A DNA stretch of 64,000 nucleotides, from assembly GCA_963715745.1 (NCBI GenBank), contig OY970271.1:499129-563128 (forward strand), given 5' to 3'. Of the stretch, positions 9,908 through 32,533 are shown piece by piece; the stretch's first letter is position 1, and every line of letters starts with the position of its first letter. The stretch is from an uncultured Ignavibacteriales bacterium (GTDB lineage: Bacteria; Bacteroidota; Ignavibacteria; Ignavibacteriales; Ignavibacteriaceae). The translations under genes and the position numbers were made by a program. The notes under the pieces were generated by a model. It searched no databases. It saw nothing but the letters and a program-made list of their open reading frames with translations, and was not told the origin of the DNA.

Positions 9908-9981
9908 TGTGGGAGTCTCCTCTGTTTAAATATATTATTGTGTGTTAGTATGATGTAAACGGAATAAATTAGTTCCCCGAA

Positions 9982-17016: not shown

Positions 17017-17913
17017 TTAAATTCCTAAAAGCCTCATAATCAAAAAGATTATAATCCCTGTTATCGATCCAAGATAAATCCGGCGTATATATTTTCTTCC
17101 TTCTTCATTTTTGGATTTCAATAACATCAACGCCGGGAAAGCGATGGCTATATCCATTATTCCAATGGGCGCCAGGTAAATAATTGCAAACCAATTGATT
17201 ATAAATGGAATAAATGACAACAGGATAACAAAAAAGAAAATGATTACACTTGTTTTGATTGCAGTTGATTTACCAAACTTTATTGCCAATGAATTAGAAT
17301 TTATAAGCTTGTCGCCTTTAATATCCATTGCATCGGCAGCGATCTCTTCTCCAAGATCTATTAACGCAGCTATCAACCCAAAGAACAGAACTATTTTGTG
17401 AAATGGCAATCCCACACTTGCACCGCCGTAAATGAAAGTCATACCAACAGAAAAGCTAACCATCAGATTTCCAGGCAAGCCACTCTTTTTGAAATAACGG
17501 TTGTAAAGAAATCCAATTGCCGCCAAAACAATTGAAATGAAAAGCACGGTAATGTTGATTAAATAAGCGAGTAGAGTTCCTGTGAATAAAAGAAGCAGTG
17601 AAAAGTTTAAAGCTTCATTTGCTGTTACGAGTTTTGAGGGGATTGGACGAAGTGGTGAATTTATTTTATCTGTCTCTACATCGAAATAATCATTCATTAC
17701 TAATATTGATGCGGAAATTAAAAACACAGAAACAAAACCCAAAATTGTAACAACAACAGAGGTAAATTCTCCAAGCGCTAACATCTGCCCCATCACAACA
17801 CACACTCCAGCAGAAAAGGGAAGTTCGAAACGTATAAGTTTGAGAAGACCTTTAATTTTGTTCATACTATTTTCACGACTGAAACAATTACACTGTGGCA
17901 GAGAATATTCCAT
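17017..17913 (-). CDS. UbiA-family prenyltransferase, archaeal DGGGP-synthase-like
   Basis: 298 aa with about 8 TM segments, the Asp-rich motif NDYFDVETDKINSPLRPIPS and a second motif DIKGD. The likely true start is MNKIKG at 17865. Confidence 0.85.
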   Translation of the reverse strand: MEYSLPQCNCFSRENSMNKIKGLLKLIRFELPFSAGVCVVMGQMLALGEFTSVVVTILGFVSVFLISASILVMNDYFDVETDKINSPLRPIPSKLVTANEALNFSLLLLFTGTLLAYLINITVLFISIVLAAIGFLYNRYFKKSGLPGNLMVSFSVGMTFIYGGASVGLPFHKIVLFFGLIAALIDLGEEIAADAMDIKGDKLINSNSLAIKFGKSTAIKTSVIIFFFVILLSFIPFIINWFAIIYLAPIGIMDIAIAFPALMLLKSKNEEGRKYIRRIYLGSITGIIIFLIMRLLGI

Positions 17914-17964
17914 TCATCACAATACGACTTAAGTTGGATGGGTTCGCTTGACGTTCCTGGAATA

Positions 17965-19038
17965 TTATCTCCCTTTAAATTTCTTCACATCTTTCATAGC
18001 TGAATGAAAGAACTTGCCCCACTTTTTATCCTTCTTTCTCTTTTCAACATAAGACATTTCATTGTACTGCGACTCTTTATAAATCTTAATGTAATTGTTA
18101 TAACGCTCTTCAGATATTTTCCCCTTTGCCACCGCTTCCAGAACTGCACAGCCGGCTTCGACAGTGTGAGTGCAGTCTTTGTATTTACATTGATCTGCAA
18201 GTTCATCAATTTCATTGAACGTATCACCAAGTCCCAACTCATTTGAGATAACGCCGAGCTCTCTCATTCCCGGGTTGTCAATTATTATTGCACCGTTTTG
18301 CAGAACGATAAGTTCGCGGCGAGTAGTAGTGTGTTTTCCTCTTCCGTCTTTTTCTCTTATCGGCTGAGTTTTGTAGAGGTCCTGATGAATTAGATTATTA
18401 AGCAAAGTTGTTTTGCCAACTCCCGATGAACCAAGCAAACAGTAAGTCTTAAATGGTTCAAAAAGGGTTTTAATATTTTCTATATCACTTTGGTTGTTGT
18501 TGCTGAAAGAAGCAATCGTAACATCAGGCAGGATTTTGCGAATGTCATTTTTCTTTTGCTCAATTTCTTCTACACTGATAAGATCGCTTTTACTTAAGAA
18601 TATTGCCGGAGTTATTTTGCCTTCGTTTATCATTACCAGGTAGCGTTCGAGTCTTCTTAAATTAAAATTGGAATCCAGCGACTGCATAATGATTGCAGTA
18701 TCTATGTTTGCAGCAATAAGCTGGTAATCAACTTTTTTGCCGGAAGCTTTTCTTTTCAGTAATGATTTACGTGGAAGGACGTCGTGAATAATTGCAAGCT
18801 CATCATCATCGAAGAGCTGAGCATAAACAAAATCGCCGACAGCGGGCAGATCGAACGAGTCCTCAGAATTAAATAAAAACTTTCCTGTCAGCTCTGCATA
18901 AATATCTTTTACGCCGTTGGAAACAACAAAGCTGTTCTTGTTTACGCTTATTACTCTTACAATGTTGAAATCAGTTTTAGATAAATCAACTTTATCTTGA
19001 AACCAGTTTTTGAAGCCGAGGTTTTGTAGGTTGTTCAT
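17965..19038 (-). CDS. rsgA: ribosome small-subunit-dependent GTPase A
   Basis: 357 aa with an OB-fold N-terminus, circularly permuted GTPase motifs (GSSGVGKTTLLNNL, DGRGKHTTT) and a Zn knuckle CKYKDCTHTVEAGCAV. Confidence 0.95.
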   Translation of the reverse strand: MNNLQNLGFKNWFQDKVDLSKTDFNIVRVISVNKNSFVVSNGVKDIYAELTGKFLFNSEDSFDLPAVGDFVYAQLFDDDELAIIHDVLPRKSLLKRKASGKKVDYQLIAANIDTAIIMQSLDSNFNLRRLERYLVMINEGKITPAIFLSKSDLISVEEIEQKKNDIRKILPDVTIASFSNNNQSDIENIKTLFEPFKTYCLLGSSGVGKTTLLNNLIHQDLYKTQPIREKDGRGKHTTTRRELIVLQNGAIIIDNPGMRELGVISNELGLGDTFNEIDELADQCKYKDCTHTVEAGCAVLEAVAKGKISEERYNNYIKIYKESQYNEMSYVEKRKKDKKWGKFFHSAMKDVKKFKGR

Positions 19039-19199
19039 AAAAAATTTTCGATTAGAACATTTTTTAATTGATTTTTCGCGTTAAAGCTCTAACAAACTAA
19101 TTGAATACGTAATATTTCACTTGCATACTTAACCAACAACCCTTATGTTTGTAGTGAACCACTGAAAATGCGAATGCATCGTAGGTGGTGTTAGAATTT

Positions 19200-19229
19200 A
19201 AGGCGATCTGTTCAGGTCGCCTTTTTTAT
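19200..19229 (+). terminator. hairpin plus T-run; canonical on the plus strand, and also directly downstream of the minus-strand DUF3800 stop
   Basis: The hairpin aaggcgatctgttcaggtcgcctt is followed by ttttttattt on the plus strand. On the minus strand it follows the TAA stop at 19228-19226 but has only a weak T tail. Confidence 0.5.
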
Positions 19230-20017
19230 TTCGGATGATAAACAATTCCATATTCATTGCTTCTGGTAGCTTTCAGATTAAAAACTGGTATCAAAATATC
19301 CAGCCAACTTCTTATCTCTGAAAACTCAGTAAAATCTTTTAAGCGATTTGGCAATTCTCCCAGATCAAAGTTTTTAATCGTATAAAGAGTAACTAAGTAT
19401 GAGATTAAATCTGATATTTGAATGAAATACGATTGTTTTGAGTCTTTTGGTAATGGATCCTCTATCAGGTATTTAATTTCTTTTCTATAATGCGAAGTCG
19501 AGTATTTTGAAGGAATGAAATTAATTCTTTGAATTTTTCTTGTTGTTTTCATCATTTTCCCGACACGACCGGGATCAGTTATTATCATAAATCTATCATT
19601 TGGATTTGAGCTTGTTTCAAGATCATTATCAATTCTTTGAATTGAATATGTTAGAGCCGTATCAAGCACTTCAAATTTGGGATTACTTAATCTTTCTTTA
19701 ACTATTACAGTGTTAATAATCTTGAGATCTAACCTTGAAATTAATTGACAAAAAAAGGAAATGATTTCTTTTTTATCATCATTGCTAATTTTTAAATCTT
19801 TGTAGGGATTTTTATCTAGCAAAAAATACTTGGTGTGAAATTCGATTTTAACCGGGAAATTGAATTCATTTTTTAATCTTCTTCTAAAATCCAAAACGGC
19901 TTCATAATTTTCTTTCCAACTTAAATAATGCATATATGTTGCTGTTAAACAAAATAATGGAGAGGAATAAACCGGAAATCCGTCGTCCCCGGATTCGTCA
20001 TAATAAACAATTCTCAT
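19226..20017 (-). CDS. DUF3800 family protein
   Basis: 263 aa. The N-terminal MRIVYYDESGDDG (DESG motif) and overall length fit DUF3800. Confidence 0.7.
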   Translation of the reverse strand: MRIVYYDESGDDGFPVYSSPLFCLTATYMHYLSWKENYEAVLDFRRRLKNEFNFPVKIEFHTKYFLLDKNPYKDLKISNDDKKEIISFFCQLISRLDLKIINTVIVKERLSNPKFEVLDTALTYSIQRIDNDLETSSNPNDRFMIITDPGRVGKMMKTTRKIQRINFIPSKYSTSHYRKEIKYLIEDPLPKDSKQSYFIQISDLISYLVTLYTIKNFDLGELPNRLKDFTEFSEIRSWLDILIPVFNLKATRSNEYGIVYHPK

Positions 20018-20110
20018 AATGTAGTATTATTAAATAATAGAATAATAATTTCTCGTCTTAAGTTAATTTTATTTTCAGGGCAAACACAATGGTACCATGG
20101 CAGATATCTT

Positions 20111-20222
20111 AACTGTTTTTGTTTACGCTTATTAGTCTTACAATAAGGAAGTCGTGGGTTTTAGCTAAATCAACTTCATCCTTAAACCAATTATCGAAGC
20201 AGAGGTTTTGTAGGTTGTACAT
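20111..20222 (-). repeat. decayed copy of rsgA codons 1-37 (copy 2)
   Basis: Translates to MYNLQNLCFDNWFKDEVDLAKTHDFLIVRLISVNKNS*, against the rsgA N-terminus MNNLQNLGFKNWFQDKVDLSKTDFNIVRVISVNKNSF. It aligns at the nucleotide level to 18931-19038 with one 3-nt indel. Confidence 0.9.
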
Positions 20223-20224
20223 TT

Positions 20225-20884
20225 TTAGTCTATTGCTCGGGAATCAATTGAACCTTTTAGTGCTGCCCGTATCAACAAAATAACTACACCTAAATACCAC
20301 AATCCTGTAAACATTCCAACGTGTGGAAAACCATGAACGTAAGGCGGATCGGGGAAATAGTATATGTTAGCTCCAAGCAGGGGAACAATCGCGACAAAAA
20401 TTCCTGTCCAGCCGATAATTCTTCCAAAACGTGAATCGCGGATTAAGTTAATAGCAAAAAATAATGTTCCAAGCCCAATAAAAATATCGAACGCAACGTC
20501 AAGTCCAAGGACTACATCCCAGATTCGTTGTCTCACTATTGAATTTAATTGTTCATCACCTGAAGGAGCTGTTGAGTAATTGATAGCCAGCTGGACAATT
20601 ATCATAGCAGTAACCAAAGCACCGGCTAATGAGTTAAGAATAGCTGCCAGCTTAATCGTGGGTGAATTACGACGAGTCAACAGAATATGAGCAAGTGATA
20701 TACTCGCTATTGCGAGAGCGGGACCAAAACTTCCACCTAAAATTAATTGAGGTATTCGAGGGACAGCGACTAATATCAGGACAGGATAAACACAGCAAGC
20801 GACAATACCTGCAACTATTCCAATTTTCACCCAGCTTCTTATATTCTCCTCGTGAGGATTACTTATAATTGTTTTTTCTATCAT
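20225..20884 (-). CDS. multi-pass membrane protein, unknown function
   Basis: 219 aa with about 6 hydrophobic segments. The stop codon lies 2 nt upstream of the ATG of rsgA-fragment copy 2. Confidence 0.7.
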   Translation of the reverse strand: MIEKTIISNPHEENIRSWVKIGIVAGIVACCVYPVLILVAVPRIPQLILGGSFGPALAIASISLAHILLTRRNSPTIKLAAILNSLAGALVTAMIIVQLAINYSTAPSGDEQLNSIVRQRIWDVVLGLDVAFDIFIGLGTLFFAINLIRDSRFGRIIGWTGIFVAIVPLLGANIYYFPDPPYVHGFPHVGMFTGLWYLGVVILLIRAALKGSIDSRAID

Positions 20885-20947
20885 AATAGGTTCCTTATAA
20901 CTAAATAAAAATTAAAGTTGATTCTGTAACTTTTTGCGAATAATTAC

Positions 20948-20996
20948 AAAACTTTTGAACACCAATTATCGAAGCCGGGTTTTGTATGTTATTCAT
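20948..20996 (-). repeat. decayed copy of the rsgA 5' end (copy 3)
   Basis: The minus strand reads atgaataacatacaaaacccggcttcgataattggtgttcaaaag, against rsgA atgaacaacctacaaaacctcggcttcaaaaactggtttcaag. It carries a 1-nt deletion that shifts the frame. Confidence 0.75.
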
Positions 20997-21016
20997 TGTG
21001 ATATCATTAATCCGGG

Positions 21017-21511
21017 TTAATATCTAATCAATTTATGCCCAAGTTTGAACAAGGGTTTTAATAATGAAAGTATAATAACTGTAAAAGCCAGAATAGCTAT
21101 TATCAAATAATAAACATTAATTCCCGCATCTATATACCGCGAAATAATTATTATTGATAAAGGCAGGTTTAATAAAAGTGCTGTTATCAATCCGGGTGCG
21201 TATTTTTTTAATAAAATAGTTGCGGCTAAGTGAGGAATTATGGTGTTTAAGCCCATCATTCCTATAAAGCCAAGATATATATAACTAAAAGCACTACCAT
21301 TAGTGTTGTCAATTATTTCGGCAACCGTAACAAGATAACCAATAATAGTAACAACTATAACTGCAAATATAAATTGGTTTCTCTCAACGGGTTGATGGAA
21401 TTTTTTTGCGTGCTTCGACCATTCAGGCAGCCAGACAGATTCTTCAATATTGTGAATTGTAAAACCTAAAAGGAAAATAAATTTTAGTGCCAGGGCAATA
21501 CTATCATTCAT
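21017..21511 (-). CDS. HXXEE domain-containing membrane protein
   Basis: 164 aa with the FTIHNIEESVWLPEW motif and 4-5 TM segments. Confidence 0.75.
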   Translation of the reverse strand: MNDSIALALKFIFLLGFTIHNIEESVWLPEWSKHAKKFHQPVERNQFIFAVIVVTIIGYLVTVAEIIDNTNGSAFSYIYLGFIGMMGLNTIIPHLAATILLKKYAPGLITALLLNLPLSIIIISRYIDAGINVYYLIIAILAFTVIILSLLKPLFKLGHKLIRY

Positions 21512-21560
21512 ATGTTATCTTTTAACCAATTGTTAATCCGAGGAATTGCGGATTGTTCAT
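21511..21560 (-). repeat. decayed copy of the rsgA 5' end (copy 4)
   Basis: The minus strand reads atgaacaatccgcaattcctcggattaacaattggttaaaagataacat (MNNPQFLGLTIG*). It aligns to rsgA atgaacaacctacaaaacctcggcttcaaaaactggtttcaagataaagt. Confidence 0.7.
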
Positions 21561-21576
21561 ATTTTTTCATCCAAAC

Positions 21577-21605
21577 TTCCCAATTCTTCCCAAAGAAAAC
21601 AACGG
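21577..21605. repeat. 29-bp direct repeat, copy A (ttcccaattcttcccaaagaaaacaacgg)
   Basis: Identical to copy C (23262-23290) and 27/29 identical to copy B. Confidence 0.9.
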
Positions 21606-21625
21606 GGAGATTTAAAAATCGTGCT

Positions 21626-22100
21626 ATCCCCTCTTGGGAGGGGCGAGGGGTGGGTCGGATAGATTGTAAAGAAAAAAATTATTATGTTACTGACAAATGA
21701 AGAGAAGGAAAATCATTCCATATAATCCAAAGCTAAAAGAATACGCTAGGAAACTCAGGAATAACAGTACTTATACAGAAGTTCAGCTATGGAATTATAT
21801 GAAGAAAAAACAACTTCGTGGTTATGACATTGACCGGCAGAAACCAATAGACAATTATATTGTGGATTTCTATTGCAAGGATCTTATGCTGGCAATTGAG
21901 ATTGATGGTGAAAGTCACTATGGAAACACTGATAAAGACAAAAAGAAAGATAAGAGACTTAATGAACTTGGTGTTACCGTTCTCAGGTTTGATGATTTGG
22001 ATATTATATATAAACTGGATAAAGTGCTTGAGAAGATAGAGGAATGGATTGATGCAAATGAGAAGTTGACCCACCCCTAAATCCCCTCCAAGGAGGGGAC
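21626..22100 (+). mobile_element. DUF559 endonuclease gene bounded by about 31-bp G-rich terminal inverted repeats
   Basis: The left end is atcccctcttgggaggggcgaggggtgggtc (21626-21656). The reverse complement of the right end (22068-22100) is gtcccctccttggaggggatttaggggtgggtc. The DUF559 stop codon lies inside the right repeat. Confidence 0.6.
21697..22080 (+). CDS. DUF559 endonuclease-domain protein (Vsr/restriction-endonuclease-like fold)
   Basis: 127 aa with YIVDFYCKDLMLAIEIDGESH and VTVLRFDD, typical of DUF559. Confidence 0.85.
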   Translation: MKRRKIIPYNPKLKEYARKLRNNSTYTEVQLWNYMKKKQLRGYDIDRQKPIDNYIVDFYCKDLMLAIEIDGESHYGNTDKDKKKDKRLNELGVTVLRFDDLDIIYKLDKVLEKIEEWIDANEKLTHP

Positions 22101-22127
22101 TATAAGTGAAAGATTTGTTCAACTAAG

Positions 22128-22156
22128 TTCCCATTTCTTTCCAAAGAAAACAACGG
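22128..22156. repeat. 29-bp direct repeat, copy B
   Basis: Reads ttcccatttctttccaaagaaaacaacgg, with 2 mismatches to copies A and C. Confidence 0.85.
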
Positions 22157-22163
22157 TGAGTGT

Positions 22164-23135
22164 TTAATCCTTCTCTTGGTGTTCATTTACTTCTCCGTTG
22201 TAAGAAAGCTTCCCATCTTTGAAGTTGCCTTTCACAATGAGTTCTCCATCAATCCCCTGTCCGAATATTATTTTTCCTTCAACATCACCACCGGCTTTAA
22301 CATCTGCTGTGTAAGTAAGCTTTCCGGACGCTGGTGAGCCGTCAACAGTTCCGTTGAATGATCCAAAACCTATCCATTCTTCCTTGTAAGTTCCGGGAGG
22401 TTCACCGCAAGGACCATAAACCAGAATACGGAAATCTATTTCAAGTTTTCCTGTTAATGTTCCGGTAATATTATAAGGTTGTTTTATTTCCACAATGCAG
22501 ACTTTCCCAATTTCATTCCTTACCGGTGTCCCTAAAGGTGGGCCAACTGGTTGAAAAGTTCCTTCAACCTCCATTTCAGGTTTATCAATGTTTCGGATAA
22601 TTTGATCCTCTTTGGTTGGCAATCCAAGCATTGCGGTGATGAGCCAGTTGCCATTCTGCTTAAGCATTACCCACGTACCGCGTGCTTTCCTAGTATGAAG
22701 TTTTATTCCCAGTGTGTCTTGTCCCCCGGTTGTTGTCTCGACGTTGACTACCGCAACATCTTCAGCTATAAATCTGACTGAATTCAGAACGAACGTCCCC
22801 CTTCGTCCCGGTTCCTGCTTATTGAAAGAACTCTGCCAATAAGCCCGCCACCAGTTTTCGATGGCTTCCCTTCCTTGTAACCTGGGCAAATTGAACATTA
22901 CGAAATCGGCATCTTCAGTGAAGAATGCCGCAAGAGTTTCAGGGTTATGGGTGTTAAATGTACGTTGATACTCTTCGATCCGTGTGAATACTGCAGCAGA
23001 ATCACTATCTGTCTGTGCCACCGCCATACTGGAATACACAGTGTTGAAAGTAATTAAAGTTATAATCAGCACAGTCATATTTACGAAATTTACCAGGTTG
23101 AGCGTCGATGACAGCCTACTAATTTTTACATTCAT
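22164..23135 (-). CDS. secreted two-domain protein: NTF2-like (DUF4440/SgcJ-EcaC type) N-domain plus unassigned beta-rich C-domain
   Basis: Has a signal-like N-terminus and the NTF2-like pattern AAFFTEDADFVMFNLPRLQGREAIENWW...GTWVMLKQNGNWLITAM. The C-terminal 130 aa are Gly/Lys/beta-rich. ATG 23135 is preceded by aggaaggag; the track ORF starts 27 nt earlier. Confidence 0.7.
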   Translation of the reverse strand: MNVKISRLSSTLNLVNFVNMTVLIITLITFNTVYSSMAVAQTDSDSAAVFTRIEEYQRTFNTHNPETLAAFFTEDADFVMFNLPRLQGREAIENWWRAYWQSSFNKQEPGRRGTFVLNSVRFIAEDVAVVNVETTTGGQDTLGIKLHTRKARGTWVMLKQNGNWLITAMLGLPTKEDQIIRNIDKPEMEVEGTFQPVGPPLGTPVRNEIGKVCIVEIKQPYNITGTLTGKLEIDFRILVYGPCGEPPGTYKEEWIGFGSFNGTVDGSPASGKLTYTADVKAGGDVEGKIIFGQGIDGELIVKGNFKDGKLSYNGEVNEHQEKD

Positions 23136-23261
23136 TTTTTTCTCCTTCCTGAAATAAAACAAATGTCGTTATCAACCGAACTCCTTACCTGCATAATGAT
23201 ATTATAACTAAACCAACCAGAGCAAACGGGTGATAAAGGATATTAATTTTCTGTGATGAAT

Positions 23262-23290
23262 TTCCCAATTCTTCCCAAAGAAAACAACGG
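23262..23290. repeat. 29-bp direct repeat, copy C
   Basis: Reads ttcccaattcttcccaaagaaaacaacgg and sits immediately downstream (minus sense) of the aldo/keto reductase terminator. Confidence 0.9.
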
Positions 23291-23293
23291 TTT

Positions 23294-23329
23294 AAAACAA
23301 AAAAACCGCAGAAGTTTTCTCCTGCGGTT
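23294..23329 (-). terminator. rho-independent terminator of the aldo/keto reductase gene
   Basis: On the minus strand, the hairpin aaccgcaggagaaaacttctgcggtt is followed by tttttttgtttt. Confidence 0.8.
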
Positions 23330-23445
23330 AAATAATATTTATAGTGTTGTTTCCCCAAACAGAAAAGATCCTGAAACCCTCCATAGGCGGGCAGGTAAGT
23401 TCAGGGGGAAACATCGGTATTACAATTTATTATTGTATCATTTCA

Positions 23446-24450
<1,005 letters not shown>

Positions 24451-24488
24451 TCATCTTTTTCTATTTTGGAATTGTCATTATAAATTAC

Positions 24489-24773
24489 TCAGGACAAAAC
24501 ATCTCTTATTTTTTCCATCTTATCAAAAACAGATTTTGCAAACGGACACAACGGAATTATTTTGATTTTATTTTCACGCGCATATTTAACCACTTCCATT
24601 AAAATTTTTTTACCGATGTTTTGTCCACGGTAAGCATCATCTACTTCTGTATGATCAAGTATCATCCTGGTTTCACCAGCAAATGTATAACTCATTCTGC
24701 CAGCTTCTTTATCATCATCAAATGCACCAAAGTAACCTTTTGTGCCGGAATCAATTTGTTTTATTTCGATCAT
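24489..24773 (-). CDS. small GNAT-family N-acetyltransferase (YjdJ-like)
   Basis: 94 aa with LDHTEVDDAYRGQNIGKKILMEVVKYARENKIKIIPLCPF. Confidence 0.8.
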   Translation of the reverse strand: MIEIKQIDSGTKGYFGAFDDDKEAGRMSYTFAGETRMILDHTEVDDAYRGQNIGKKILMEVVKYARENKIKIIPLCPFAKSVFDKMEKIRDVLS

Positions 24774-24774
24774 A

Positions 24775-24984
24775 TTACTTTTCTTTTATGCTGAGTGCGC
24801 CGGAAGGACATTTAGCTACCTGGCTGATAAGTTCTTCTGTTGTTGCATTTTCAGGTTTAATCCACGGATGCACTTTTGTATTATAAACTTTCGGCAGAGT
24901 TTTTACACATATACCTGAATGCTGACACAATTTCGGCTGCCAAACTATTGTTATCTCGCCGTTAGGATATTCTTTGCGTTCCAT
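24775..24984 (-). CDS. small Cys-containing protein, divergent 4Fe-4S mono-cluster-like
   Basis: 69 aa with the pattern CQHSGIC...CPSGAL. Confidence 0.5.
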   Translation of the reverse strand: MERKEYPNGEITIVWQPKLCQHSGICVKTLPKVYNTKVHPWIKPENATTEELISQVAKCPSGALSIKEK

Positions 24985-25026
24985 TTATATCTCCTTTAAA
25001 CTTAATTAATAATCAAGTTTGATTTT

Positions 25027-25862
25027 TTAATGCTTCCCAATTTTAACTGACATCATTGTCAGTGAGCCGCCCACAGCTTTATCATTGAACAAACTTACTT
25101 CTTCATTCTCTTCTTTCAAAGCTAGAGCATAGATCAATGGCAGATAATGTTCAGGTGTTGGAACAGCCAGATTAATTTCCTTTCCCTGTGATTGATAATT
25201 AATGAGCTGCTTGTGATCGCCGGACAGAATAAATTTTTTCATCTTTTCACTTACTTCACTTGCGCCCAGTCGTAACTATAGTTTACTTCGTTCAATCTTG
25301 TCCAGTCAACCATACGAAGATTGTGAACCATATTTCCGCTGCCGATTATAAGCACACCTTTTTTACGTAATGAGCCATGCTCCCTTGCTAATTCATAATG
25401 GTAATGCGGTGATTGAGTATAATCAAGACTCAGTTCAATTACAGGAACATCGGCATCAGGGTAAAGATGTTTTACAACAGACCACGCCCCGTGATCAAGT
25501 CCCCAATTTAAGTCCAGTCCCACTTCAGTTTTTTTAATTATACTTTTTGTTTGCTTTGCAAGTTCGGGACTTCCCGGGGCAGGATATTGAACTTCGTACA
25601 ACTCTTTCGGAAACCCTCCGAAGTCGTGAATGGTTTGGGGCTTCTCCATCGCGGTAACAAAAGTTCCTTTAGTTTCCCAGTGAGCAGATACAACTAAAAC
25701 AGCATTTGGTTTTGGAATTTCTTTCCCGATTTTTCTAAAGCCTTGCACAAATTCATTTTCCTCAATCGCATTCATCGGGCTTCCGTGTCCAAGAAACAGC
25801 ACGGGCATTTTCTCCGTGCTGTTAAATGGTTCTGTTATTTTATTTAATTCATTTAGTTTCAT
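25027..25862 (-). pseudogene. 4,5-DOPA dioxygenase extradiol (YgiD/LigB family) with an internal frameshift
   Basis: Track ORFs 25251..25862 (...NYSYDWAQVK*) and 25027..25242 (MKKFILSGDHKQLINY...PTPEHYLPLIYALA) are two halves of one family. The frame of the downstream ORF reads ...GASEVSEKMKKFILSGDH back to 25265. Two extra nt (gc, 25264-25265) separate TGG(W) from that frame. Confidence 0.65.
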
Positions 25863-25890
25863 TAAAAGTCATGACGTTGTTTCATATTAT

Positions 25891-26643
25891 TTATACAGCA
25901 GTATATCCGCCATCAACAGTATAATAAGATCCTGTCACAAAAGAAGATTTTGAAGAAGCCAGCCATAAAGCCAGTTCTGCAACTTCTTCTGATTTACCCA
26001 AACGACCTATGGGATGTTTGGTCTCTAAGAATTTTAAGGTTTCCTTATCCAGGTTTTTATCAAGCATCGGAGTTGAAATAAAACCGGGACCAATTGAATT
26101 TACCCGTACATTTTTTGTTGCATATTCAACTGCAGCATTTTTTGTTAAACCAACAACACCATGTTTTGCAGCAACGTATGCTGATGAATTTGCAAAGCCC
26201 ACTGATCCAAGAATAGAAGCCATATTAATAATACTTCCTTCTCCACTTTTTAACATTGCGGGAATTTGATACCGCATTCCATAAAATACGCCTGATAAGT
26301 TAATTGCAATAACTTTATCCCATCCATCAACAGGATATTCACCAACCGGAGCGCTTGGTCCGCCGATGCCGGCATTATTGACTGCAATGTGCAACCTACC
26401 ATAATGTTTGACTGTCTGATCAACAAGCTGCTTATTCTCTTCCGGTTTAGAAGAGTCAGCTTTTATAAAAATCGCGTCGCCTTCTTTTGATTTTATTTCA
26501 GAGACGGTTTCATTTCCACCCTTTTCATCAATATCGGAGACAACAACTTTAGCACCTTCCGTAGCGTAAAGTATTGCTGTTGCTCTTCCAATTCCGGAAC
26601 CAGCTCCTGTGACTATTGCAACTTTGTTTTCTAACACTTTCAT
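25891..26643 (-). CDS. short-chain dehydrogenase/reductase (classical SDR)
   Basis: 250 aa with TGAGSGIGRA, NNAG and YVAAKHG. Confidence 0.95.
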   Translation of the reverse strand: MKVLENKVAIVTGAGSGIGRATAILYATEGAKVVVSDIDEKGGNETVSEIKSKEGDAIFIKADSSKPEENKQLVDQTVKHYGRLHIAVNNAGIGGPSAPVGEYPVDGWDKVIAINLSGVFYGMRYQIPAMLKSGEGSIINMASILGSVGFANSSAYVAAKHGVVGLTKNAAVEYATKNVRVNSIGPGFISTPMLDKNLDKETLKFLETKHPIGRLGKSEEVAELALWLASSKSSFVTGSYYTVDGGYTAV

Positions 26644-26725
26644 AATTTCACCTTTTTAAAACGATAGTTAAACAATTTCCATTTAATAGAATGTACAATA
26701 ATAAAAATTGAAATCAACATTTTAT

Positions 26726-27271
26726 TTATGCAGCCTGTGATGCCGCCTGAACTTTGTTGAATTCAGCAAGGATTTCAATTTTAACTTCATTGCCTACAAC
26801 AACACCGCCGGCTTCGGTTAATGCATTCCACTTCAAACCAAAATCGAAACGATTAATTTTTGCGGAAATTTCAAAACCTGCAACTTCGCTTCTGCCCAGT
26901 CCTTCAACAATTCCATTATAGATAACATCAAGAGTAATTTCTTTTGTTATATTACGTATCGTAAGGTTACCTTTTACCTTAAGTTCGTGATCAGATATTT
27001 TCTTCACAGAAGTAGATGTGAAAGAGATCTTATCAAAATTCTCAGCATCAAAGAAGTCAGGTGATTTTAAGTGAGCATCACGATCATTATTTCTGGTATT
27101 GATGCTGTTTGTCTCTGTTTCGAATTTAATCACTGCATCACTAAAGTCTTCTTTATTTGTTTCTATGGATGCATCAAATTTATCAAAGTTACCTCTTACA
27201 GTTGAAACCACAAGGTGTTTTACTTTAAAATTTACTTCAGAATGTGTTGGGTCAATTTTCCATGTTGTCAT
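26726..27271 (-). CDS. YceI family polyisoprenoid-binding protein
   Basis: 181 aa with WKIDPTHSEVNFKVKHLVVSTVRGNFDKF. Confidence 0.9.
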   Translation of the reverse strand: MTTWKIDPTHSEVNFKVKHLVVSTVRGNFDKFDASIETNKEDFSDAVIKFETETNSINTRNNDRDAHLKSPDFFDAENFDKISFTSTSVKKISDHELKVKGNLTIRNITKEITLDVIYNGIVEGLGRSEVAGFEISAKINRFDFGLKWNALTEAGGVVVGNEVKIEILAEFNKVQAASQAA

Positions 27272-27492
27272 TGTCTTGTTCCTTTATTTTTGTCTGATAT
27301 TATTTTGTTTAATTACTACTCAAACATAACTTGAAAGGACCCTCTTGTGCATTCACATAGGGTAAATAAAAAGTTACCATAGGGTAATCAATAGAAACGC
27401 TATGTAATGCTGAACTCGTTTCAGCATCTGTTTTAAGTATCGAGATTCCGAAATAATTCGCTGCGGCGTACAGAATGACTTTAAACAAGCAA

Positions 27493-28071
27493 TTACTTTT
27501 GTGAAAGCTCTTTTCTTATTCTGCTTAAAGATTGCGGGGTAATACCGAGATATGATGCAATATGATTTTGCGGTACCTGTTCTAAAAGTTTCGGATAAGT
27601 TTTAATAAATTTAAGGTATCTTTCTTCTGCCGAAGCACTAAGTGAATCAGCAATTCTTTGTTGCGTGGCTATATGATTAGCCTCAATTAGAAGGCGAAAG
27701 AAGCGCTCCATTTTCGGACAGTTATCGAGCAATCCTTCTCTTGCAGATCTTTCAAGCAAAAGAACTTCGGAATCCTCAAGAGCATCGATATTGTAATTTG
27801 ATGGTAAACCGGAAAGGAAACTATTTAAATCAGAAACCCACCAGTCTTCAATCGCGAATTGAAGTATGTGCTCTGTTCCCTTGCTATCAATTTCATATTC
27901 CCGCAGACAGCCTGAGTTTACAAATCCAACATATCTGCATACATCACCTTCGTTTAAAAGGAATTGGTGTTTTTTCAACTTCTTAGAAACAAAATACTTC
28001 GTACAGATATTAAACTCTTCATCTGTAAGATGGACTCTTTTTTCGATATGTGTTCGCAGTAATGAAAACAT
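27493..28071 (-). CDS. Crp/Fnr family transcriptional regulator
   Basis: 192 aa with a cNMP-binding-like N-domain and the C-terminal HTH IASYLGITPQSLSRIRKEL. Confidence 0.9.
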   Translation of the reverse strand: MFSLLRTHIEKRVHLTDEEFNICTKYFVSKKLKKHQFLLNEGDVCRYVGFVNSGCLREYEIDSKGTEHILQFAIEDWWVSDLNSFLSGLPSNYNIDALEDSEVLLLERSAREGLLDNCPKMERFFRLLIEANHIATQQRIADSLSASAEERYLKFIKTYPKLLEQVPQNHIASYLGITPQSLSRIRKELSQK

Positions 28072-28215
28072 TTATACAAACTTAAAATAATGTAAGGTTG
28101 TAAAAAATAGCTTAACGCAAAGCGAAGAATACCATTGTCGTTTCGAAAGAACAAAGTGACTGCCTGTCCACCGAAGCTTCAACGTAAGTGGGAATCTTTT
28201 TTATGCGTGCGGGTA

Positions 28216-28242
28216 AACTAAAAAGGGGCACTTAGTGCCCCT
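28216..28242 (-). terminator. rho-independent terminator after the BNR/T9SS gene
   Basis: On the minus strand, the hairpin aggggcactaagtgcccct is followed by ttttt. Confidence 0.8.
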
Positions 28243-28258
28243 GGATATTAATGCTTCC

Positions 28259-29731
28259 TTATTTCATCAGAACCATCTTTTTTGTTTCTGTATTTTTACC
28301 TGTAAAGATGCTGTAAAAGTAAACACCGCTTTGAAGCTTACTCCCATCAAATTCAATTTGGTATATTCCGGCAGACTTTTCTTCATTTAACAATGTTTCG
28401 ATTTCATTACCCAGTATATCATAAACCCTTATCTGAACTTCTGATGATTGAGGGATAGAGTATTTTATTATTGTTTTTGGATTAAAAGGATTGGGATAAT
28501 TCTGATCAAGCATAAATGTATTAGCAGGGATATTTATATCATTAATATTTGTAACCATACCACCGGAATTATCGGTAAATAAAACAAGCCCGGTTTGAAT
28601 GAGATACGATCCCGGTATGTACCATCTCGATTTGTTCACTAGCTTTGCATCCCTGAAAATGTAATTAAAAAGCTTGGGGTGCAGAGTGTAATCCCAGTTG
28701 TTCCCGCCATCCAGGGAAATTTCAATGAAAGGAGTATTATCAATAATCGGCTGATGAAAACCGTAAACCAGTACAACCCCGGAGTCACGGAGAGCTTCCA
28801 TTCCCGCAATTATGTGCTGGACCGTGTATGTGTGCAATTCATTCCAGCTTATTCCCAGGTCAGTCGATTTATAAATAAATGCATTATCGGAAAGAGTAAA
28901 TCCCTCAATTAAAATATTATTTAAATCAACACAGGTAACACGGGAAACAGAGTAGGTGCCGCCGACAAAACTTTTTACCCAGGTTTCACCTGCATCAGTT
29001 GTTCTCAGAACTATTCCATTCCCGGAATCTTCACCTACAGCAATACCGGTTTGATTATCAATAAAATCAATGTCATTTATCAGCAGGTTCAAAGTGAACG
29101 GGTAAACGTAATACCAGTTGTTTCCCCCGTCTGTTGTTTTTAATATGCAGTAACTGTTGCCTGTGGGAGAAATGCCAGTAACGCAACCTGTCTGATGGTC
29201 AATAAAAGACATTCCGACCAAAGCATGGACAGTATCATCAAATGAACCTTTCGGGTGCCACGATAATCCTCCGTCAGTTGTTTCAATAAAGTAGCCTGTG
29301 AATTCTCCCTGACGCAAAGATTCGTTCACAAAATCTTCAGGGTTATTTTGAATGTCAGGTTTATCCGGGAGAGGATGCTGTGTATTTGTTGTTGTCCAGG
29401 TGACGGATTTATTATATGCCCCTGTACCATAAGCTAGTGAATCGTTGAACATCTGAACTTTTTCCAATATTCTCATTGAGTCAGGTATTGATGATTCAAG
29501 CCAGGTGTCCCCGCCGTTGTTCGTATAATAAACAGAACCGTAAAACTGTTGTGTGGCAACATAACCATAAAAGCCGCCAGTTATTCCGTGATCAGGGTTG
29601 TTAAAATCAATACTCAACATTACGTGCATATCACCCGGCACACCCGGTAATGTTTGCTGCATCCATTGCGGTTTTAAGTTTGTAGCAAATGTAAAAAAGA
29701 GAATTGCGATAAAGTAAATCATCTTTTTCAT
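28259..29731 (-). CDS. BNR/Asp-box repeat beta-propeller protein with T9SS C-terminal sorting domain
   Basis: 490 aa with a signal peptide and repeated Asp-boxes (TTDGGLSWH, TTDGGNNWYY, TTDAGETWVK, STDLGISWNE, SLDGGNNWDY). The C-terminus reads NYPNPFNP...VYFYSI...KKMVLMK. Confidence 0.85.
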   Translation of the reverse strand: MKKMIYFIAILFFTFATNLKPQWMQQTLPGVPGDMHVMLSIDFNNPDHGITGGFYGYVATQQFYGSVYYTNNGGDTWLESSIPDSMRILEKVQMFNDSLAYGTGAYNKSVTWTTTNTQHPLPDKPDIQNNPEDFVNESLRQGEFTGYFIETTDGGLSWHPKGSFDDTVHALVGMSFIDHQTGCVTGISPTGNSYCILKTTDGGNNWYYVYPFTLNLLINDIDFIDNQTGIAVGEDSGNGIVLRTTDAGETWVKSFVGGTYSVSRVTCVDLNNILIEGFTLSDNAFIYKSTDLGISWNELHTYTVQHIIAGMEALRDSGVVLVYGFHQPIIDNTPFIEISLDGGNNWDYTLHPKLFNYIFRDAKLVNKSRWYIPGSYLIQTGLVLFTDNSGGMVTNINDINIPANTFMLDQNYPNPFNPKTIIKYSIPQSSEVQIRVYDILGNEIETLLNEEKSAGIYQIEFDGSKLQSGVYFYSIFTGKNTETKKMVLMK

Positions 29732-29917
29732 ATTAATATTTTTTTATTCGATTGATGTTTCTATGAAGTAACTTTTCCGGAATTAGTCTAAGACGGTTTC
29801 AAATTACAAAGTTTTAAAGGAATAAGAAAATGTGAGGAGAACCCATCCCTTTCCATAGGAATCCCTTTGTGAAAATCCCTCGTGGAGTCCGATTGACTCG
29901 CCGAAGGACTTTCTGAT

Positions 29918-32533
29918 TTATTTATTAAACTTCAGTTTTCCCTTTTCACCAACGGTAATTTTAATCGTATCACCATCGCCGAAGTTACCTGCAAGCAGTT
30001 CCTGTGCAAGAGGGTTTGCAACGTACTTTTGTATTGTGCGTTTCAAAGGTCTTGCACCAAAAGTTACATCGTAACCAATGTTCACAAGCCAGTCTTTTGT
30101 TTCATCACCAATAATTAATTTAATATCTCTTGACTTCAGCATTTGGGCTACGCGGTTCAGCTGTATCTCAACAATCTGCCGTATTTCTTTATGAGTTAAC
30201 GGCTTGAAGAGAACAATCTCGTCAATCCTGTTCAGGAATTCCGGTCGTATGCTTTGCCTGAGCAGATCGCCAAGCTGTTCACGAAGCTTGCCCATTACAA
30301 TTTCAATCTGCGCATCATCAACACTGAACAAACTTTCCTGCAGCAAATGCGAACCGATGTTTGAAGTCATTATAATTATAGTATTCTTAAAGTTAACAGT
30401 TCGTCCCTGGTTGTCTGTAAGTCTTCCATCATCCAGAACCTGCAGCAGAACATTGAAAACATCCAGATGAGCTTTTTCAATTTCATCAAGAAGCACAACC
30501 GAGTAAGGTCTCCTGCGCACGGATTCGGTAAGCTGTCCGCCTTCTTCATAACCAACGTATCCCGGCGGTGCACCGATCAGCCGCGAAACAGAAAACTTTT
30601 CCATATACTCACTCATATCAATCCGTATCAATGCGTGCTCGTCATCGAATAAAAATTCTGCGAGTGCACGTGCAAGTTCGGTTTTGCCAACGCCAGTAGT
30701 TCCTAGAAATATAAACGAACCTACCGGTCTATCGGCATCCTGCATACCTGTCCGTGCTCTGCGGATTGCATTTGCAACTGCGGAAACAGCTTCATCCTGT
30801 CCGATAACTCTTTTGTGAAGTTCGTCCTCGAGTCTGAGCAGCTTGCTTCTTTCACTTTCCAGCATCCTGCTTACAGGAATGCCGGTCCACTTTGCAACTA
30901 CTTCTGCAATATCTTCCGCATCAACTTCTTCCTTAAGCATTTTTTTATCTTTTTGAATTTTTGCAAGCTCCTGCGTTTCAACTTTCAAATACTTTTCAAG
31001 CTCCGATATTTTTCCATAACGGAGCTCTGCAACCTTGCCAAGGTTCCCTTCCCTTTCGTATTTTTCTGCGAGAGTTTTTGCATTTTCAATTTCACTTTTC
31101 ATCGAGCGAATTTTCTGGATTCTTTCTTTTTCAAGATTCCAGTGTCCTTTTAATACTGTTCTTTGCTCATTTAAATCACTCAATTCTTTTTTCAATTCAT
31201 CAAGTCGTTTTTTGGAAGCATCATCTTTTTCACGCTTCAAAGCTTCGCGTTCAATTTCAAGCTGCTTAACTTTTCGTTCAAGTGCATCCAGCTCTTCCGG
31301 CATTGAATCAATTTCAATCCTTAGTTTTGAAGCCGCTTCGTCGATAAGATCGATTGCTTTATCGGGAAGAAATCGATCGGTGATGTATCTTTCCGAAAGT
31401 TGAGATGCAGCCACAATTGCACCGTCGGTTATTCTCACTCCGTGATGAACTTCATAGCGTTCCTTCAATCCTCTTAAAATAGAAATGGTATCTTCTTCGG
31501 AAGGTTCACTCACGAGCACAGGCTGGAATCTTCTTTCGAGCGCAGCATCTTTTTCAATGTATTTTCTGTATTCATCAAGTGTTGTAGCGCCAATAGTGTG
31601 AAGCTCGCCTCTTGCAAGTGCAGGCTTTAAAATGTTTGCGGCATCCATTGAACCCTGAGTTGAACCAGCGCCAACAACTAAGTGAAGCTCATCAATAAAT
31701 AATATTATTTCGCCATTTGATTCGGTTACTTCTTTAACAACGGCTTTCATTCTCTCTTCAAACTGTCCGCGAAACTGAGTTCCGGCAACAAGCGCACCCA
31801 TATCGAGCGCAACAATTCTTTTTGTCTTTAAAGTTTCAGGAACGTCACCGGAAACAATTCGGTGTGCGATACCTTCAGCGATTGCGGTTTTCCCTACTCC
31901 CGGCTCTCCAATTAATACAGGATTATTTTTTGTTCTTCTCGATAAAACCTGCAAGACTCTTCGTATCTCTTCATCTCTTCCAATCACCGGGTCAAGCTTC
32001 CCGATGCGTGCCATTTCATTTAAATCTCTTCCGTATTTTTTTAGTGATTGATAAGTGTCTTCAGGATTTTGAGAAGTTACTTTTTGTGTTCCTCTTACTT
32101 CTTTCAATGCCGTAAGAACTGCATTTCTTGAAATACCGTTATCGCGGAGAAGCTGTCCGGCTTTTCCTTTGTCTTCACTTAATGCAATTAAAAGGTGTTC
32201 GGTTGAGACGTACTCATCCTGTAACTTTTTAGCTTCATCTGCGGCTGTGTCAAGAAGTTTTGCAGTATTCTGCGACATCTGCTGGTTACCTACTCCTGCA
32301 CCTGAAACTTTCGACAGTGTCTCGAGCATTTCATTTGCTTTCAACTTTATTGAATTAGTATTGCCGCCGGCTTTTTTCATAATTGTGTCGGCAAGTCCGC
32401 CGTTTTCCTGTATAAGCGAAGCGAGCAGATGTTCCGGCTCGATTATTTGGTTGTTATAATTCTGTGCAATCTCAATTGCAGATTGAAATGCTTCCTGAGC
32501 TTTTACCGTTAGTTTATTAAAATTAAATGTCAT
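29918..32533 (-). CDS. clpB: ATP-dependent chaperone/disaggregase ClpB
   Basis: 871 aa with two AAA+ modules ([18 protein letters not shown]) and a long middle coiled coil. Confidence 0.97.

Follow-up and report, generated by a model that had tools for sequence, protein, structure and literature searches.

Organization of the region upstream of rsgA

The 64-kb stretch of DNA analyzed here (the window) carries an intact rsgA gene whose product shares 70-92% amino acid identity with RsgA of 60+ Ignavibacteriaceae MAGs. A variable stretch of unrelated genes and repeats separates it from clpB, and the intact rsgA is both the conserved right border and the homology anchor of this array. The features are listed below; loci used for comparison carry an L number.

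17965..19038, minus strand: intact rsgA, 357 aa (Pfam RsgA_GTPase, E 5e-49)
19039..19225, minus strand: spacer between DUF3800 and rsgA, its upstream ~100 nt being a hairpin plus 'acaccacctacgatgcattcgcattttcagtggttcactacaaa'
19226..20017, minus strand: cassette gene DUF3800 (Pfam PF12686)
20110..20222, minus strand: rsgA 5' fragment 2, model positions 1-113, 37 codons and then a stop (nhmmer 86.3 bits, E 1e-25)
20225..20884, minus strand: cassette gene for a 6-TM membrane protein with a weak DUF4386 match (Pfam)
20959..20996, minus strand: rsgA 5' fragment 3, model positions 1-39, with a 1-nt deletion (nhmmer 16.6 bits)
21017..21511, minus strand: cassette gene HXXEE (Pfam PF13787)
21512..21560, minus strand: rsgA 5' fragment 4, model positions 1-50, 12 codons and then a stop (nhmmer 12.6 bits)
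21561..21609, minus strand: copy c of the D2 repeat (core 21572-21605) with a short 5' leader, the native rsgA promoter-like element
21626..22100, plus strand: DUF559 unit, with its gene (21697-22080) on the strand opposite to rsgA (Pfam PF04480)
22113..22160, minus strand: D2 copy b (core 22123-22156) plus leader, ending exactly at the would-be ATG (49 nt, 84% identical to 21561-21609)
22164..23135, minus strand: cassette gene, SnoaL/DUF4440-like, start taken at the ATG at 23135 (Pfam)
23257..23329, minus strand: clpB-type terminator hairpin (23305-23329) and then D2 copy a (23257-23290), after the AKR gene
23446..29731, minus strand: older section of the variable stretch, conserved in part, with every gene on the strand of rsgA (Pfam)
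29918..32533, minus strand: clpB, the conserved left border, preceded by htpG, dnaJ-like and hsp20 genes (Pfam)

Read from clpB, the older part encodes a BNR protein with a T9SS tail, a Crp-like regulator, YceI, an SDR protein, LigB, a small ORF, Fer4_19, GNAT and AKR. The gene order in L020 resembles it (Crp-like, YceI, LigB-like, GNAT and AKR included), and shorter subsets of the order occur in L007, L036, L040 and L050. The clpB-type terminator past the AKR gene marks the far end of the array. Pfam confirmed the labels DUF3800, 6-TM, HXXEE and rsgA given in an earlier note made from the sequence alone, the 6-TM protein being weakly DUF4386-like. The DUF559 unit is bounded by ~30-nt GC-rich inverted repeats (21626-21656 and 22068-22100), and a solo copy of this repeat was seen at 60414-60443. 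The independent Logan assembly of run ERR11571143 (L068, 7745 bp), in which the SnoaL/DUF4440-like gene was called as 323 aa, was 99.99% identical to the window over 17095-24840, indicating that the locus is not an assembly artefact.

Repeated copies of the rsgA 5' end

An nhmmer profile covering the initial 120 nt of the gene, made from about 55 relatives, was run against the window. The rsgA 5' end was found four times on the minus strand, each time from an ATG (19038, 20222, 20996 and 21560). The intact gene (19038-18922) scored 102 bits, while the best match other than these copies reached 3.7 bits. When the whole window was shuffled 200 times with dinucleotides preserved, the top score was 12.4 bits and no shuffle attained the 12.6 bits of the weakest fragment, so that the four copies claimed in the earlier note were borne out. 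The copy that it had placed at 20948-20996 and described as frameshifted does carry a 1-nt deletion, and the real similarity is therefore about 10 nt shorter than that interval. As it had also described, the stop of the 6-TM gene lies 2 nt ahead of the fragment 2 ATG and that of HXXEE 20 nt ahead of the next fragment ATG.

Fragment 2 was 82% identical to the live rsgA, as against 87% to that of L002. More generally, fragments 2-4 resembled the rsgA genes of other genomes more closely than the live copy, and the nearest neighbours of the first 113 nt of the live gene were unlike those of its remainder, a weak signal. Fragment 4 is still joined to the native rsgA promoter region, and its junction with HXXEE recurs in L008 and, in decayed form, in L014. 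Judged by its alignment with the intact junctions of L008, L014 and L029, fragment 3 is a truncated remnant of the native HXXEE-rsgA junction.

A promoter-like repeat accompanies the cassettes

A second repeat family of 34 nt, D2, had been overlooked in the earlier note. The three copies listed above are the only ones in the 64 kb. Since D2 is triplicated further upstream, the array also takes in the DUF559 and SnoaL-like units and is larger than previously described. Across about 1.9 Mb of flanks and the window we found 235 distinct D2 copies, every one on the rsgA strand and located between clpB and rsgA wherever either gene was on the contig. D2 lies 11-30 nt ahead of the intact rsgA ATG in L006, L020, L026 and L050. 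The sequence 'aaccgcagg..ctgcggttttttgttttaaa' followed by D2 also occurs after clpB in L006 and L014, and elsewhere after other cassette genes. Beside the decayed rsgA fragment of the same unit (L014 and window copy 4), D2 retained 31 of 34 consensus positions.

Sigma-A promoters of the FCB group (Bacteroidota type) have TTG or TTTG at -33 and TAnnTTTG at -7, about 19-21 nt apart, upstream of the start codon. D2 has TTG at positions 4-6 and GAAGTTT(G/A) at positions 27-34 with a spacing of 20 nt, and it is placed after the T-runs of terminators, 11-150 nt ahead of start codons. It differs from the FCB promoter in that its -7 box begins with G and its spacer is unusually conserved. From this sequence and placement D2 is a putative promoter, and each cassette of the array seems to have its own promoter and terminator.

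The array is a hotspot throughout the family

The comparative set comprised about 190 array loci (about 1.9 Mb), and the array upstream of rsgA is a family-wide hotspot, not an oddity of a single genome. The rsgA 5' fragments recovered number 47 and fall into 26 junction classes; each is on the strand of rsgA and starts at the ATG (model positions 1-7). Their end points ranged from +40 to +296, in agreement with the variable ends inside rsgA that had been noted in the window, and were mildly clustered, with 8 of the 26 classes ending between +54 and +61 and several between +40 and +47. The displaced copy in L127 is full length: the joint is at the rsgA stop, and the incoming left end lies inside a gene. 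Duplicated backbone pieces occur in several registers (terminator plus D2, D2 alone, D2 plus leader, and ATG to +N), and L027 has a 3' fragment of clpB with the terminator and D2. Behind the last cassette there is always an intact rsgA. Most units hold a single gene and measure 0.4-1.4 kb, and the great majority of array genes share the strand of rsgA. Their cargo is miscellaneous (methyltransferases, DUF4440, NmrA, SDR, beta-lactamase, Pirin and others), and the left end of incoming DNA usually falls a short way ahead of a start codon.

States before and after insertion were both present. HXXEE followed by 20 nt and an intact rsgA was found in L008, L014 and L029, and this junction has been cut by different cargo at +39 in the window and at +65 in L018. 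By synteny and flanks, L008, L014, L018 and L029 all have HXXEE immediately ahead of rsgA or an rsgA fragment. The junction of a fragment (1-57) with cassette c26 was found in 11 loci with differing neighbours, and the left junctions of HXXEE, c59, c33 and DUF3800 were the same or different between genomes. In other genomes, too, the same cassettes adjoin rsgA or fragments of it. A homologue of DUF3800 with 86% identity is part of another rsgA array (L070/L071), flanked by D2 to the left and by an rsgA fragment (1-57) to the right. The ~100-nt 3' module of the spacer was kept downstream of DUF3800 homologues (69-86% amino acid identity) in L069, L070, L072 and L073; this module travels with DUF3800, which, as the cassette nearest rsgA, is presumably the newest.

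clpB was located upstream of rsgA in 23 genome loci and 18 metagenome contigs. The two genes lie 416 bp apart in L006, their spacing is 667-697 bp in L012 and L014, and the range extends to the 10,880 bp of the window. The empty, ancestral state is clpB, terminator, D2, a short leader and rsgA, as exemplified by L006. The earlier note had expected AKR directly followed by rsgA as the empty site, which was wrong: AKR belongs to the variable stretch, and 1-4 predicted genes separate it from rsgA in the loci that have it.

Proposed mechanism

Homology-facilitated illegitimate recombination (HFIR) combines one homologous crossover with one joint at 3-10 nt of microhomology, and requires recA and DNA uptake. 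We consider it somewhat more probable than the contrary that the clpB-rsgA interval, as a hotspot of recombination, grows through sequential 5' displacement, in which homology-anchored illegitimate recombination is followed by spread through homologous recombination. HFIR would be the pathway, with an unrecognised site-specific system as the other candidate. DNA from a relative whose array ends in gene X and rsgA would enter the cell and pair with the resident rsgA as the homologous anchor; because the upstream genes differ, homology would begin at the ATG. The non-homologous left end would then be joined illegitimately to the resident backbone, at a position that could vary from immediately behind D2 to past the rsgA stop, so that the resident promoter and 5' piece would remain upstream as a stump, followed by X and by a complete rsgA whose start came in with X. 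Two homology arms would now be available, one being the stump, whether D2 or an rsgA fragment, and the other the body of rsgA, and through them ordinary homologous recombination could carry the cassette into any related genome, and arrays would consequently stack with the newest cassette beside rsgA. Redundant rsgA pieces would decay through mutation and deletion, while D2 copies most likely stay intact because each drives the cassette behind it. The idea in the earlier note of repeated insertion anchored by homology, with the old 5' end left behind, thus survives at its core, given the junction series, the recurring cassettes, the variable ends and the lack of an integrase; the extent given for the array and the predicted empty site do not.

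Several observations weigh against displacement. HFIR is rare in experiments (PMC5361080), yet this hotspot is very active. The mild clustering of end points could hint at a preferred cut site, and left ends near start codons call for selection or later deletion. The strong conservation of D2 and its confinement to the array, as seen in about 1.9 Mb of flanks and the 64-kb window, would also fit a recombination site.

The clustered end points and the conservation and confinement of D2 also suit a different reading, in which a dedicated site-specific recombinase, its gene lying at another place in the genome, would use D2 and, in second line, the rsgA 5' end for attachment. Cassettes would excise as circles and re-insert at D2 in the manner of an integron, though with another site and an unlinked enzyme. 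The layout is suggestive: as many as 6 copies of D2 lie within 4 kb, the median spacing from one D2 to the next is 748 nt, and each unit has one small gene, all in one orientation. D2 is sharp-edged, and a non-coding unit of ~195 nt bounded by D2 occurs at several positions, twice in L003. On the other hand, Pfam detected no integrase or transposase among 134 array proteins and 10 large candidates, and a phmmer and motif screen of six-frame ORFs over 1.9 Mb and about 190 loci returned only one 72-aa remnant. The absence of an integrase from the window had been noted before and was upheld; no tyrosine recombinase matched there, and the left neighbours are hsp20, dnaJ-like, htpG and clpB. D2 is most variable at its centre (positions 15-17 and 24-26), which suits an operator or promoter more than a crossover core, as does its placement close ahead of rsgA and after terminators. 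The attC sites of integrons are imperfect palindromes (R''-L''...L'-R') that form single-stranded hairpins at each cassette boundary, and a complete integron has an IntI tyrosine recombinase beside its array. When 25 boundary regions (D2 -30 to +70) were folded as DNA, no attC-like hairpin was found, just a 5-bp TTCTT/AAGAA stem (mean z -1.3). Moreover, the duplicated segments vary in register and length, unlike the product of a fixed crossover. We therefore regard an unlinked recombinase as unlikely.

Tandem accretion of integrase-borne elements, which would target the rsgA 5' end, supply a replacement 5' end and later shrink to cargo-only remnants like cis-mobilizable elements (CIMEs), is decidedly improbable. 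It would explain the direct repeats of the rsgA 5' end around cargo of one orientation and the restored live gene, and the remnant mentioned above, the C-terminal 72 aa of an Xer/IntI-like tyrosine recombinase 257 nt upstream of rsgA in L023, is in its favour. However, no intact integrase was present in the window or any of the ~190 loci, the units are too often single genes, and the repeat is inconstant in length and register. Phage and viral contigs contained no D2 and gave only chance matches to the rsgA 5' motif.

A purely local origin, with tandem duplication of the rsgA promoter and 5' end by unequal sister-chromosome exchange, subsequent divergence and independent insertion of cargo, we hold to be highly improbable. 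The repeats are indeed direct and local, and L127 has a 757-nt tandem repeat containing rsgA, but its copies are just 94% identical. The fragments of the window resemble alleles of other genomes more than the live copy, and the cargo genes are mutually unrelated and found in other genomes in other contexts. The tight native junctions (stop, 2-20 nt, ATG) show that each cargo gene came in with the rsgA start behind it. A classical integron or CALIN array can hardly account for the locus: the genes are small and in one orientation, and integrons have been reported in Ignavibacteriae (PMC9024848), but the boundary repeats stem from the host clpB-rsgA backbone, and Rfam gave no match.

Comparison with known systems

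Sequential displacement at rsgA has its closest counterpart in the orphan arrays formed by C-terminal displacement at Rhs, CDI and T6SS effector-immunity loci (Jackson 2009, PMC2935791; Kirchberger 2017, PMC5361080), where arrays with stumps of the conserved gene have been attributed to successive displacement, perhaps by HFIR (PMC5361080). In both cases, if the displacement reading holds, a conserved gene segment is the homology anchor, an incoming module displaces the previous variable part, and the displaced part is kept in tandem with a stump of the conserved gene in one orientation. Both also exchange modules horizontally into differing contexts (here c26, HXXEE, c59, c33 and DUF3800) and lack a dedicated recombinase. 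The geometry at rsgA is mirrored, in that displacement would affect the conserved gene at its promoter and 5' end and not at its 3' end. The anchor, RsgA, is a housekeeping GTPase and no polymorphic toxin. The cargo genes are unrelated and independent of one another instead of being toxin tips and immunity genes, and every unit retains a duplicate of a promoter-like element. HFIR of naturally transformable bacteria (de Vries & Wackernagel 2002, PMC122324; Prudhomme 2002, PMC122325; both cited in PMC5361080) likewise pairs a one-sided homologous anchor with an illegitimate joint, giving a fixed edge at the start of homology and a variable other edge. Unlike in those bacteria, the joint at rsgA would lie inside or downstream of the anchored region, which would produce duplication instead of deletion.

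Integrons and CALINs share with the rsgA array small, mostly single-gene cassettes in one orientation, a short element recurring between them and growth at one end, but here IntI and the attC structure are absent and the recurring element is a host promoter region or gene start. Elements with dusA-specific integrases target the 5' end of the gene and restore it, and tandem accretion with CIMEs occurs at fda in Streptococcus thermophilus. They resemble the rsgA array in their direct repeats of the end of the target gene around cargo, the reconstituted live gene and the tandem units; unlike it, they have an integrase and a constant att core, whereas the repeat at rsgA varies in length. The minimal mobile elements of Neisseria and core-gene integration hotspots hold variable content between two conserved genes, exchanged through recombination in the flanks, and like the rsgA array they carry no genes for self-mobility. 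In those systems no duplicated pieces of flanking gene or promoter build up between cassettes, whereas the clpB-rsgA interval of Ignavibacteriaceae would gather foreign single genes serially, each leaving behind a copy of the rsgA promoter region or first codons.

Extra rsgA starts and D2 repeats in the window

The first codons of rsgA were found four times on the minus strand, each copy beginning at the ATG (19038, 20222, 20996 and 21560). A search with an nhmmer profile of the first 120 nt of rsgA from ~55 relatives gave the three extra copies scores of 86.3 bits (model positions 1-113), 16.6 bits (1-39) and 12.6 bits (1-50), and the next best match in the window scored 3.7 bits. All three exceeded the top score of 12.4 bits obtained with 200 dinucleotide-preserving shuffles of the whole window, which rules out chance similarity as their source and indicates that the rsgA fragments reported in an earlier note on this DNA are real. 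Pfam agreed with the gene labels of that note (RsgA, DUF3800, HXXEE and a weak DUF4386-like match for the 6-TM protein), and the gaps of 2 and 20 nt that it gave between a stop codon and the next ATG were confirmed. Window positions 17095-24840 were 99.99% identical in L068, an independent Logan assembly from another sequencing run (ERR11571143), which excludes a chimeric assembly; since the architecture also recurs in dozens of genomes, an assembly artefact is ruled out.

Fragments 2-4 were 87%, 92% and 85% identical to rsgA of other genomes and 82%, 85% and 77% identical to the live copy. The first 113 nt of live rsgA were nearest to the comparison loci L065 and L053, while the rest of the gene was nearest to L002. 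This is a weak signal, read from sequence similarity, that agrees with the direction predicted if each event had brought in a foreign rsgA start.

The 34-nt promoter-like repeat D2 (CCGTTGTTTTCTTTGGGAAGAATTGGGAAGTTTG) was present three times on the rsgA strand, with no other copy in the 64 kb.

D2 copies in the window
21572-21605, minus strand: copy c, 11 nt ahead of the ATG of fragment 4
22123-22156, minus strand: copy b, with leader to 22113, after the SnoaL/DUF4440-like gene
23257-23290, minus strand: copy a, after the terminator hairpin that follows the AKR gene

In gene sense the order was AKR, terminator and D2, SnoaL-like gene, D2 and leader, DUF559 (opposite strand, with its own inverted repeats), D2 with leader and rsgA positions 1-50, HXXEE, rsgA positions 1-39, 6-TM gene, rsgA positions 1-113, DUF3800 and rsgA. 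The array drawn in the earlier note from the three rsgA fragments therefore stands in that part but is larger, since the D2 repeats bring in the DUF559 and SnoaL-like units.

The DUF559 gene (Vsr-like nuclease fold) lies between ~30-nt GC-rich inverted repeats (21626-21656 and 22068-22100), each holding the palindrome CCCCTCC..GGAGGGG, of which a solo copy occurs 39 kb off at 60414-60443; the arrangement is reminiscent of REP sequences around RAYT genes. Just 3' of DUF3800, a ~100-nt non-coding module (~19120-19222) with a terminator-like hairpin and 'acaccacctacgatgcattcgcattttcagtggttcactacaaa' was kept in L069, L070, L072 and L073, though their DUF3800 genes are only 69-86% identical; the module is possibly a DUF3800-linked regulatory element or cis-acting RNA. 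Elsewhere in the window, the neighboring ORFs 56897-58885 and 58931-60625 share 77% identity over 168 nt at their 3' ends (58705-58872 and 60445-60612), probably in paralogous C-terminal domains.

The native clpB-rsgA backbone

A one-genome-per-species scan yielded 67 loci, nearly all from Ignavibacteriaceae MAGs, with RsgA 70-92% identical. The emptiest loci (L006, L020, L026 and L050) consisted of clpB, a terminator 'aaccgcagg..ctgcggttttttgttttaaa', D2, an 11-30-nt leader and rsgA, an order which indicates that D2 and the terminator are parts of the native backbone and that D2 is putatively the promoter-proximal element of rsgA. Among the 23 loci with both borders, the clpB-rsgA distance was 416 bp with no gene in L006 and 667-697 bp with one gene, and the 10,880 bp of the window was the longest. 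The left-hand context was hsp20, a dnaJ-like gene, htpG and clpB, and the array genes were overwhelmingly on the rsgA strand. An empty site with AKR directly followed by rsgA, as the earlier note had predicted, was not found; wherever AKR was visible, 1-4 predicted genes intervened before rsgA.

The downstream side of rsgA was also variable (L001-L065, for example L002:11075-12300; window 17017-17913). UbiA directly followed rsgA only in the window, L004 and L012, with one to several small genes between them elsewhere, and neither L001-L065 nor the window showed D2 or rsgA fragments on that side of the gene.

rsgA fragments and D2 across the family

Extra rsgA 5' pieces were present upstream of the intact gene in 12 genome loci, and a D2-pattern search of metagenomes returned 120 contigs, many of which also had them. 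None of the 47 fragments was on the opposite strand, and all started at model positions 1-7. Classed by the sequence following the fragment, they formed 26 junction classes with end points at +40 to +47, +54 to +61 (eight classes), +63 to +67 and +74 to +76, and, for longer pieces, at +92, +101, +108, +113 to +131 and +296. The displaced copy in L127 was a full-length ORF of 363 aa whose stop codon was joined to the middle of a small divergent gene, followed by a second rsgA (repeat of 757 nt, 94% identity). Together, these start and end points place the left edge at the ATG and leave the right edge variable.

Small GC-rich hairpin repeats (TGGGAATCC..CCCTTCGGGAAAG) extended live rsgA genes by 8-15 codons through in-frame insertion behind 'AATTGGTTT' in the 5' region (L013:~10040-10084, L010:~10060-10083), and the same repeats were seen in fragments (L008:~825-870, L013:~9540-9585, L021:~1340-1365, L070:~1243-1285, L127:~3599-3622); they look like MITE/REP-type elements, and a related element lies just past the clpB stop in the window (~29835-29912). 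Another, nested-hairpin repeat (..ggacgtcacgg..ccgtgacgtaag..gccacggtgcgaccgtggcagcc..) was found at many junctions, either just ahead of a fragment ATG or directly behind fragments ending at +126 to +131 (L003:~9350-9413, L008:~2640-2703, L028:~8510-8560 and ~9530-9577, L077:7205-, L089:5050-, L151:183-).

All 58 D2 copies in the genome loci (<=7 mismatches) were on the rsgA strand and upstream of rsgA. In the related genomes L022, L024, L031 and L030-L036 the clpB-rsgA interval lacked D2. Metagenome contigs had as many as six copies within 4 kb, with all copies of a contig on one strand; wherever visible, clpB (18 contigs) was always to the left of D2 and rsgA (35 contigs) always to the right. 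Across 235 distinct copies, D2 had near-invariant blocks (TTGTTTTCTTT, AAGAAT and GAAGTTT) with variable positions between them; it was preceded by a T-run and followed by a weak 'AT..AGAAAATTA'. D2 is a marker of cassette boundaries, and the median D2-D2 spacing was 748 nt. Where D2 and an rsgA fragment had been duplicated together (window copy 4 and L014), D2 kept 31-34 of 34 consensus positions beside a decayed fragment, which suggests that D2 is maintained by selection. Its placement and TTG-N20-GAAGTTT(G) layout are similar to those of an FCB-type promoter, and D2 may act as a promoter.

Folding of D2 gave no attC-like hairpin, which rules out attC-like folding, and no Rfam family matched at the array boundaries. 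A phage or provirus origin was rejected, as D2 was absent from 2.9 million viral contigs and the rsgA 5' motif gave two 23-nt matches there, both by chance.

A ~195-nt non-coding unit with no Rfam match was always found between two D2 copies (spacing 228-261 nt; L006:1075-1269, L003:4880-5073 and 8440-8655, L001:7321-7536, L099:1986-2179, L007:~6720-6914). It carries four conserved hairpins (gcccayggattta..tccgtgggt; acggttttaaccgt; aaaccgatgaatcggttt; cccacgactgaagtcgtggg) and is a possible cassette for a small RNA; its sequences were too alike to show covariation.

Cassettes in different arrays

HXXEE stood directly ahead of intact rsgA in L008, L014 and L029. The junction of HXXEE, 20 nt and ATG was cut at +39 in the window, where the 6-TM gene follows, and at +65 in L018, where another gene follows, so that this junction is represented both before and after truncation. 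The left junction, from a fragment of about 45 to HXXEE, was common to the window, L008 and L014 and differed in L018, where the fragment ran to about +107. The junction of fragment 1-57 with cassette c26 occurred in 11 loci with differing left and right neighbours. The DUF3800 gene of L070/L071, 86% identical to that of the window, lay in another array, flanked by D2 on the left (fragment 1-113 in the window) and by an rsgA fragment on the right. The more distant DUF3800 contexts L072 and L073 lacked both D2 and rsgA fragments. The L073 homologue belongs to a long one-orientation array of small genes (AbiEii, Bro-N, RelE/MqsA-like) with unrelated 150-200-nt repeats as separators (6200-6430, 7520-7685 and 9965-10140), which adjoins Mu-like portal genes and is possibly another type of cassette array.

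Search for a recombinase

The absence of an integrase or transposase from the window, claimed in the earlier note, held in our Pfam, phmmer and box-II screens. No such enzyme was among the 25 most frequent Pfam families listed for 134 non-redundant array proteins, which were miscellaneous metabolic and stress families, and Pfam detected no recombinase in ten large, mostly opposite-strand candidates. When all six-frame ORFs of the window and ~1.9 Mb of loci were searched for tyrosine recombinases with phmmer (lambda Int) and the box-II motif, only a remnant in L023 was recovered: a 72-aa ORF (L023:584-802, minus strand), 257 nt upstream of rsgA, with the C-terminal box II region of a Xer/IntI-like enzyme (HWLRHSYATHLLEAG..LLGH..TTEIYTHV). 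No other recombinase trace came up in ~190 loci. For DDE transposases and serine recombinases the screen consisted of Pfam and a weak N-terminal motif, which rare singletons could escape.

Discussion

The repeats comprised terminator and D2, D2 alone, D2 and leader, the ATG to +N (N from 39 to 296) or the whole of rsgA. Common to them was the edge on the downstream side of the cargo, located where homology between a donor 'X-rsgA' and a recipient 'Y-rsgA' begins, which is the ATG or, if the donor too carries D2, D2 itself. That the junctions are tight and look native (stop, 2-20 nt, ATG) indicates joint arrival of X and the rsgA start behind it. With moderate confidence, we favor rsgA-anchored illegitimate joining followed by homologous spread. 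Incoming DNA would be anchored by homology in rsgA while its left end joined the resident backbone illegitimately, at no fixed position, leaving a resident stump upstream of the incoming X-rsgA. The finished stump-X-rsgA unit, homologous on both sides, could then spread through ordinary recombination, which would explain identical stump-cargo junctions in different arrays, and redundant pieces would decay afterwards while D2 was retained.

The chief alternative invokes a dedicated, unlinked recombinase that acts on D2. D2 would then be the site of an unrecognised cassette-capture system with its enzyme encoded off the array, the arrays a second, independently evolved integron-like platform whose site bears a promoter, and the rsgA 5' fragments secondary-site by-products. 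The arrays do look integron-like and their end points cluster mildly; nevertheless, we consider this unlikely, since the D2 center is variable, no linked enzyme accompanies it and the repeats lie in multiple registers, whereas a fixed crossover core would mean one repeat length and one register. If D2 were a recombination site, it would define a new class of cassette platform.

On the favored reading of rsgA-anchored joining, the locus would show a chromosome assembling foreign genes into an ordered, putatively expressed array with no help from mobile-element machinery. The conserved promoter and gene start would serve as a landing pad and, once duplicated, also as portable homology arms. Arrays in nature range from empty through intermediate to long, with hundreds of metagenomic variants, and this series should let the rates and rules of illegitimate versus homologous recombination be measured.

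Our literature search found no description of the clpB-rsgA array locus or of D2. The type of process is already known from displacement arrays, homology-facilitated illegitimate recombination and core-gene hotspots. A published model accounts for orphan immunity arrays and Rhs C-terminal displacement (PMC5361080), and the model proposed here is its mirror image, applying the displacement principle of polymorphic-toxin loci to a housekeeping gene, on its 5' side. Unlike in these known systems, the displaced parts here are a housekeeping gene's promoter and 5' end, a duplicated promoter-like element stays with each cassette, and the scale is that of one bacterial family.
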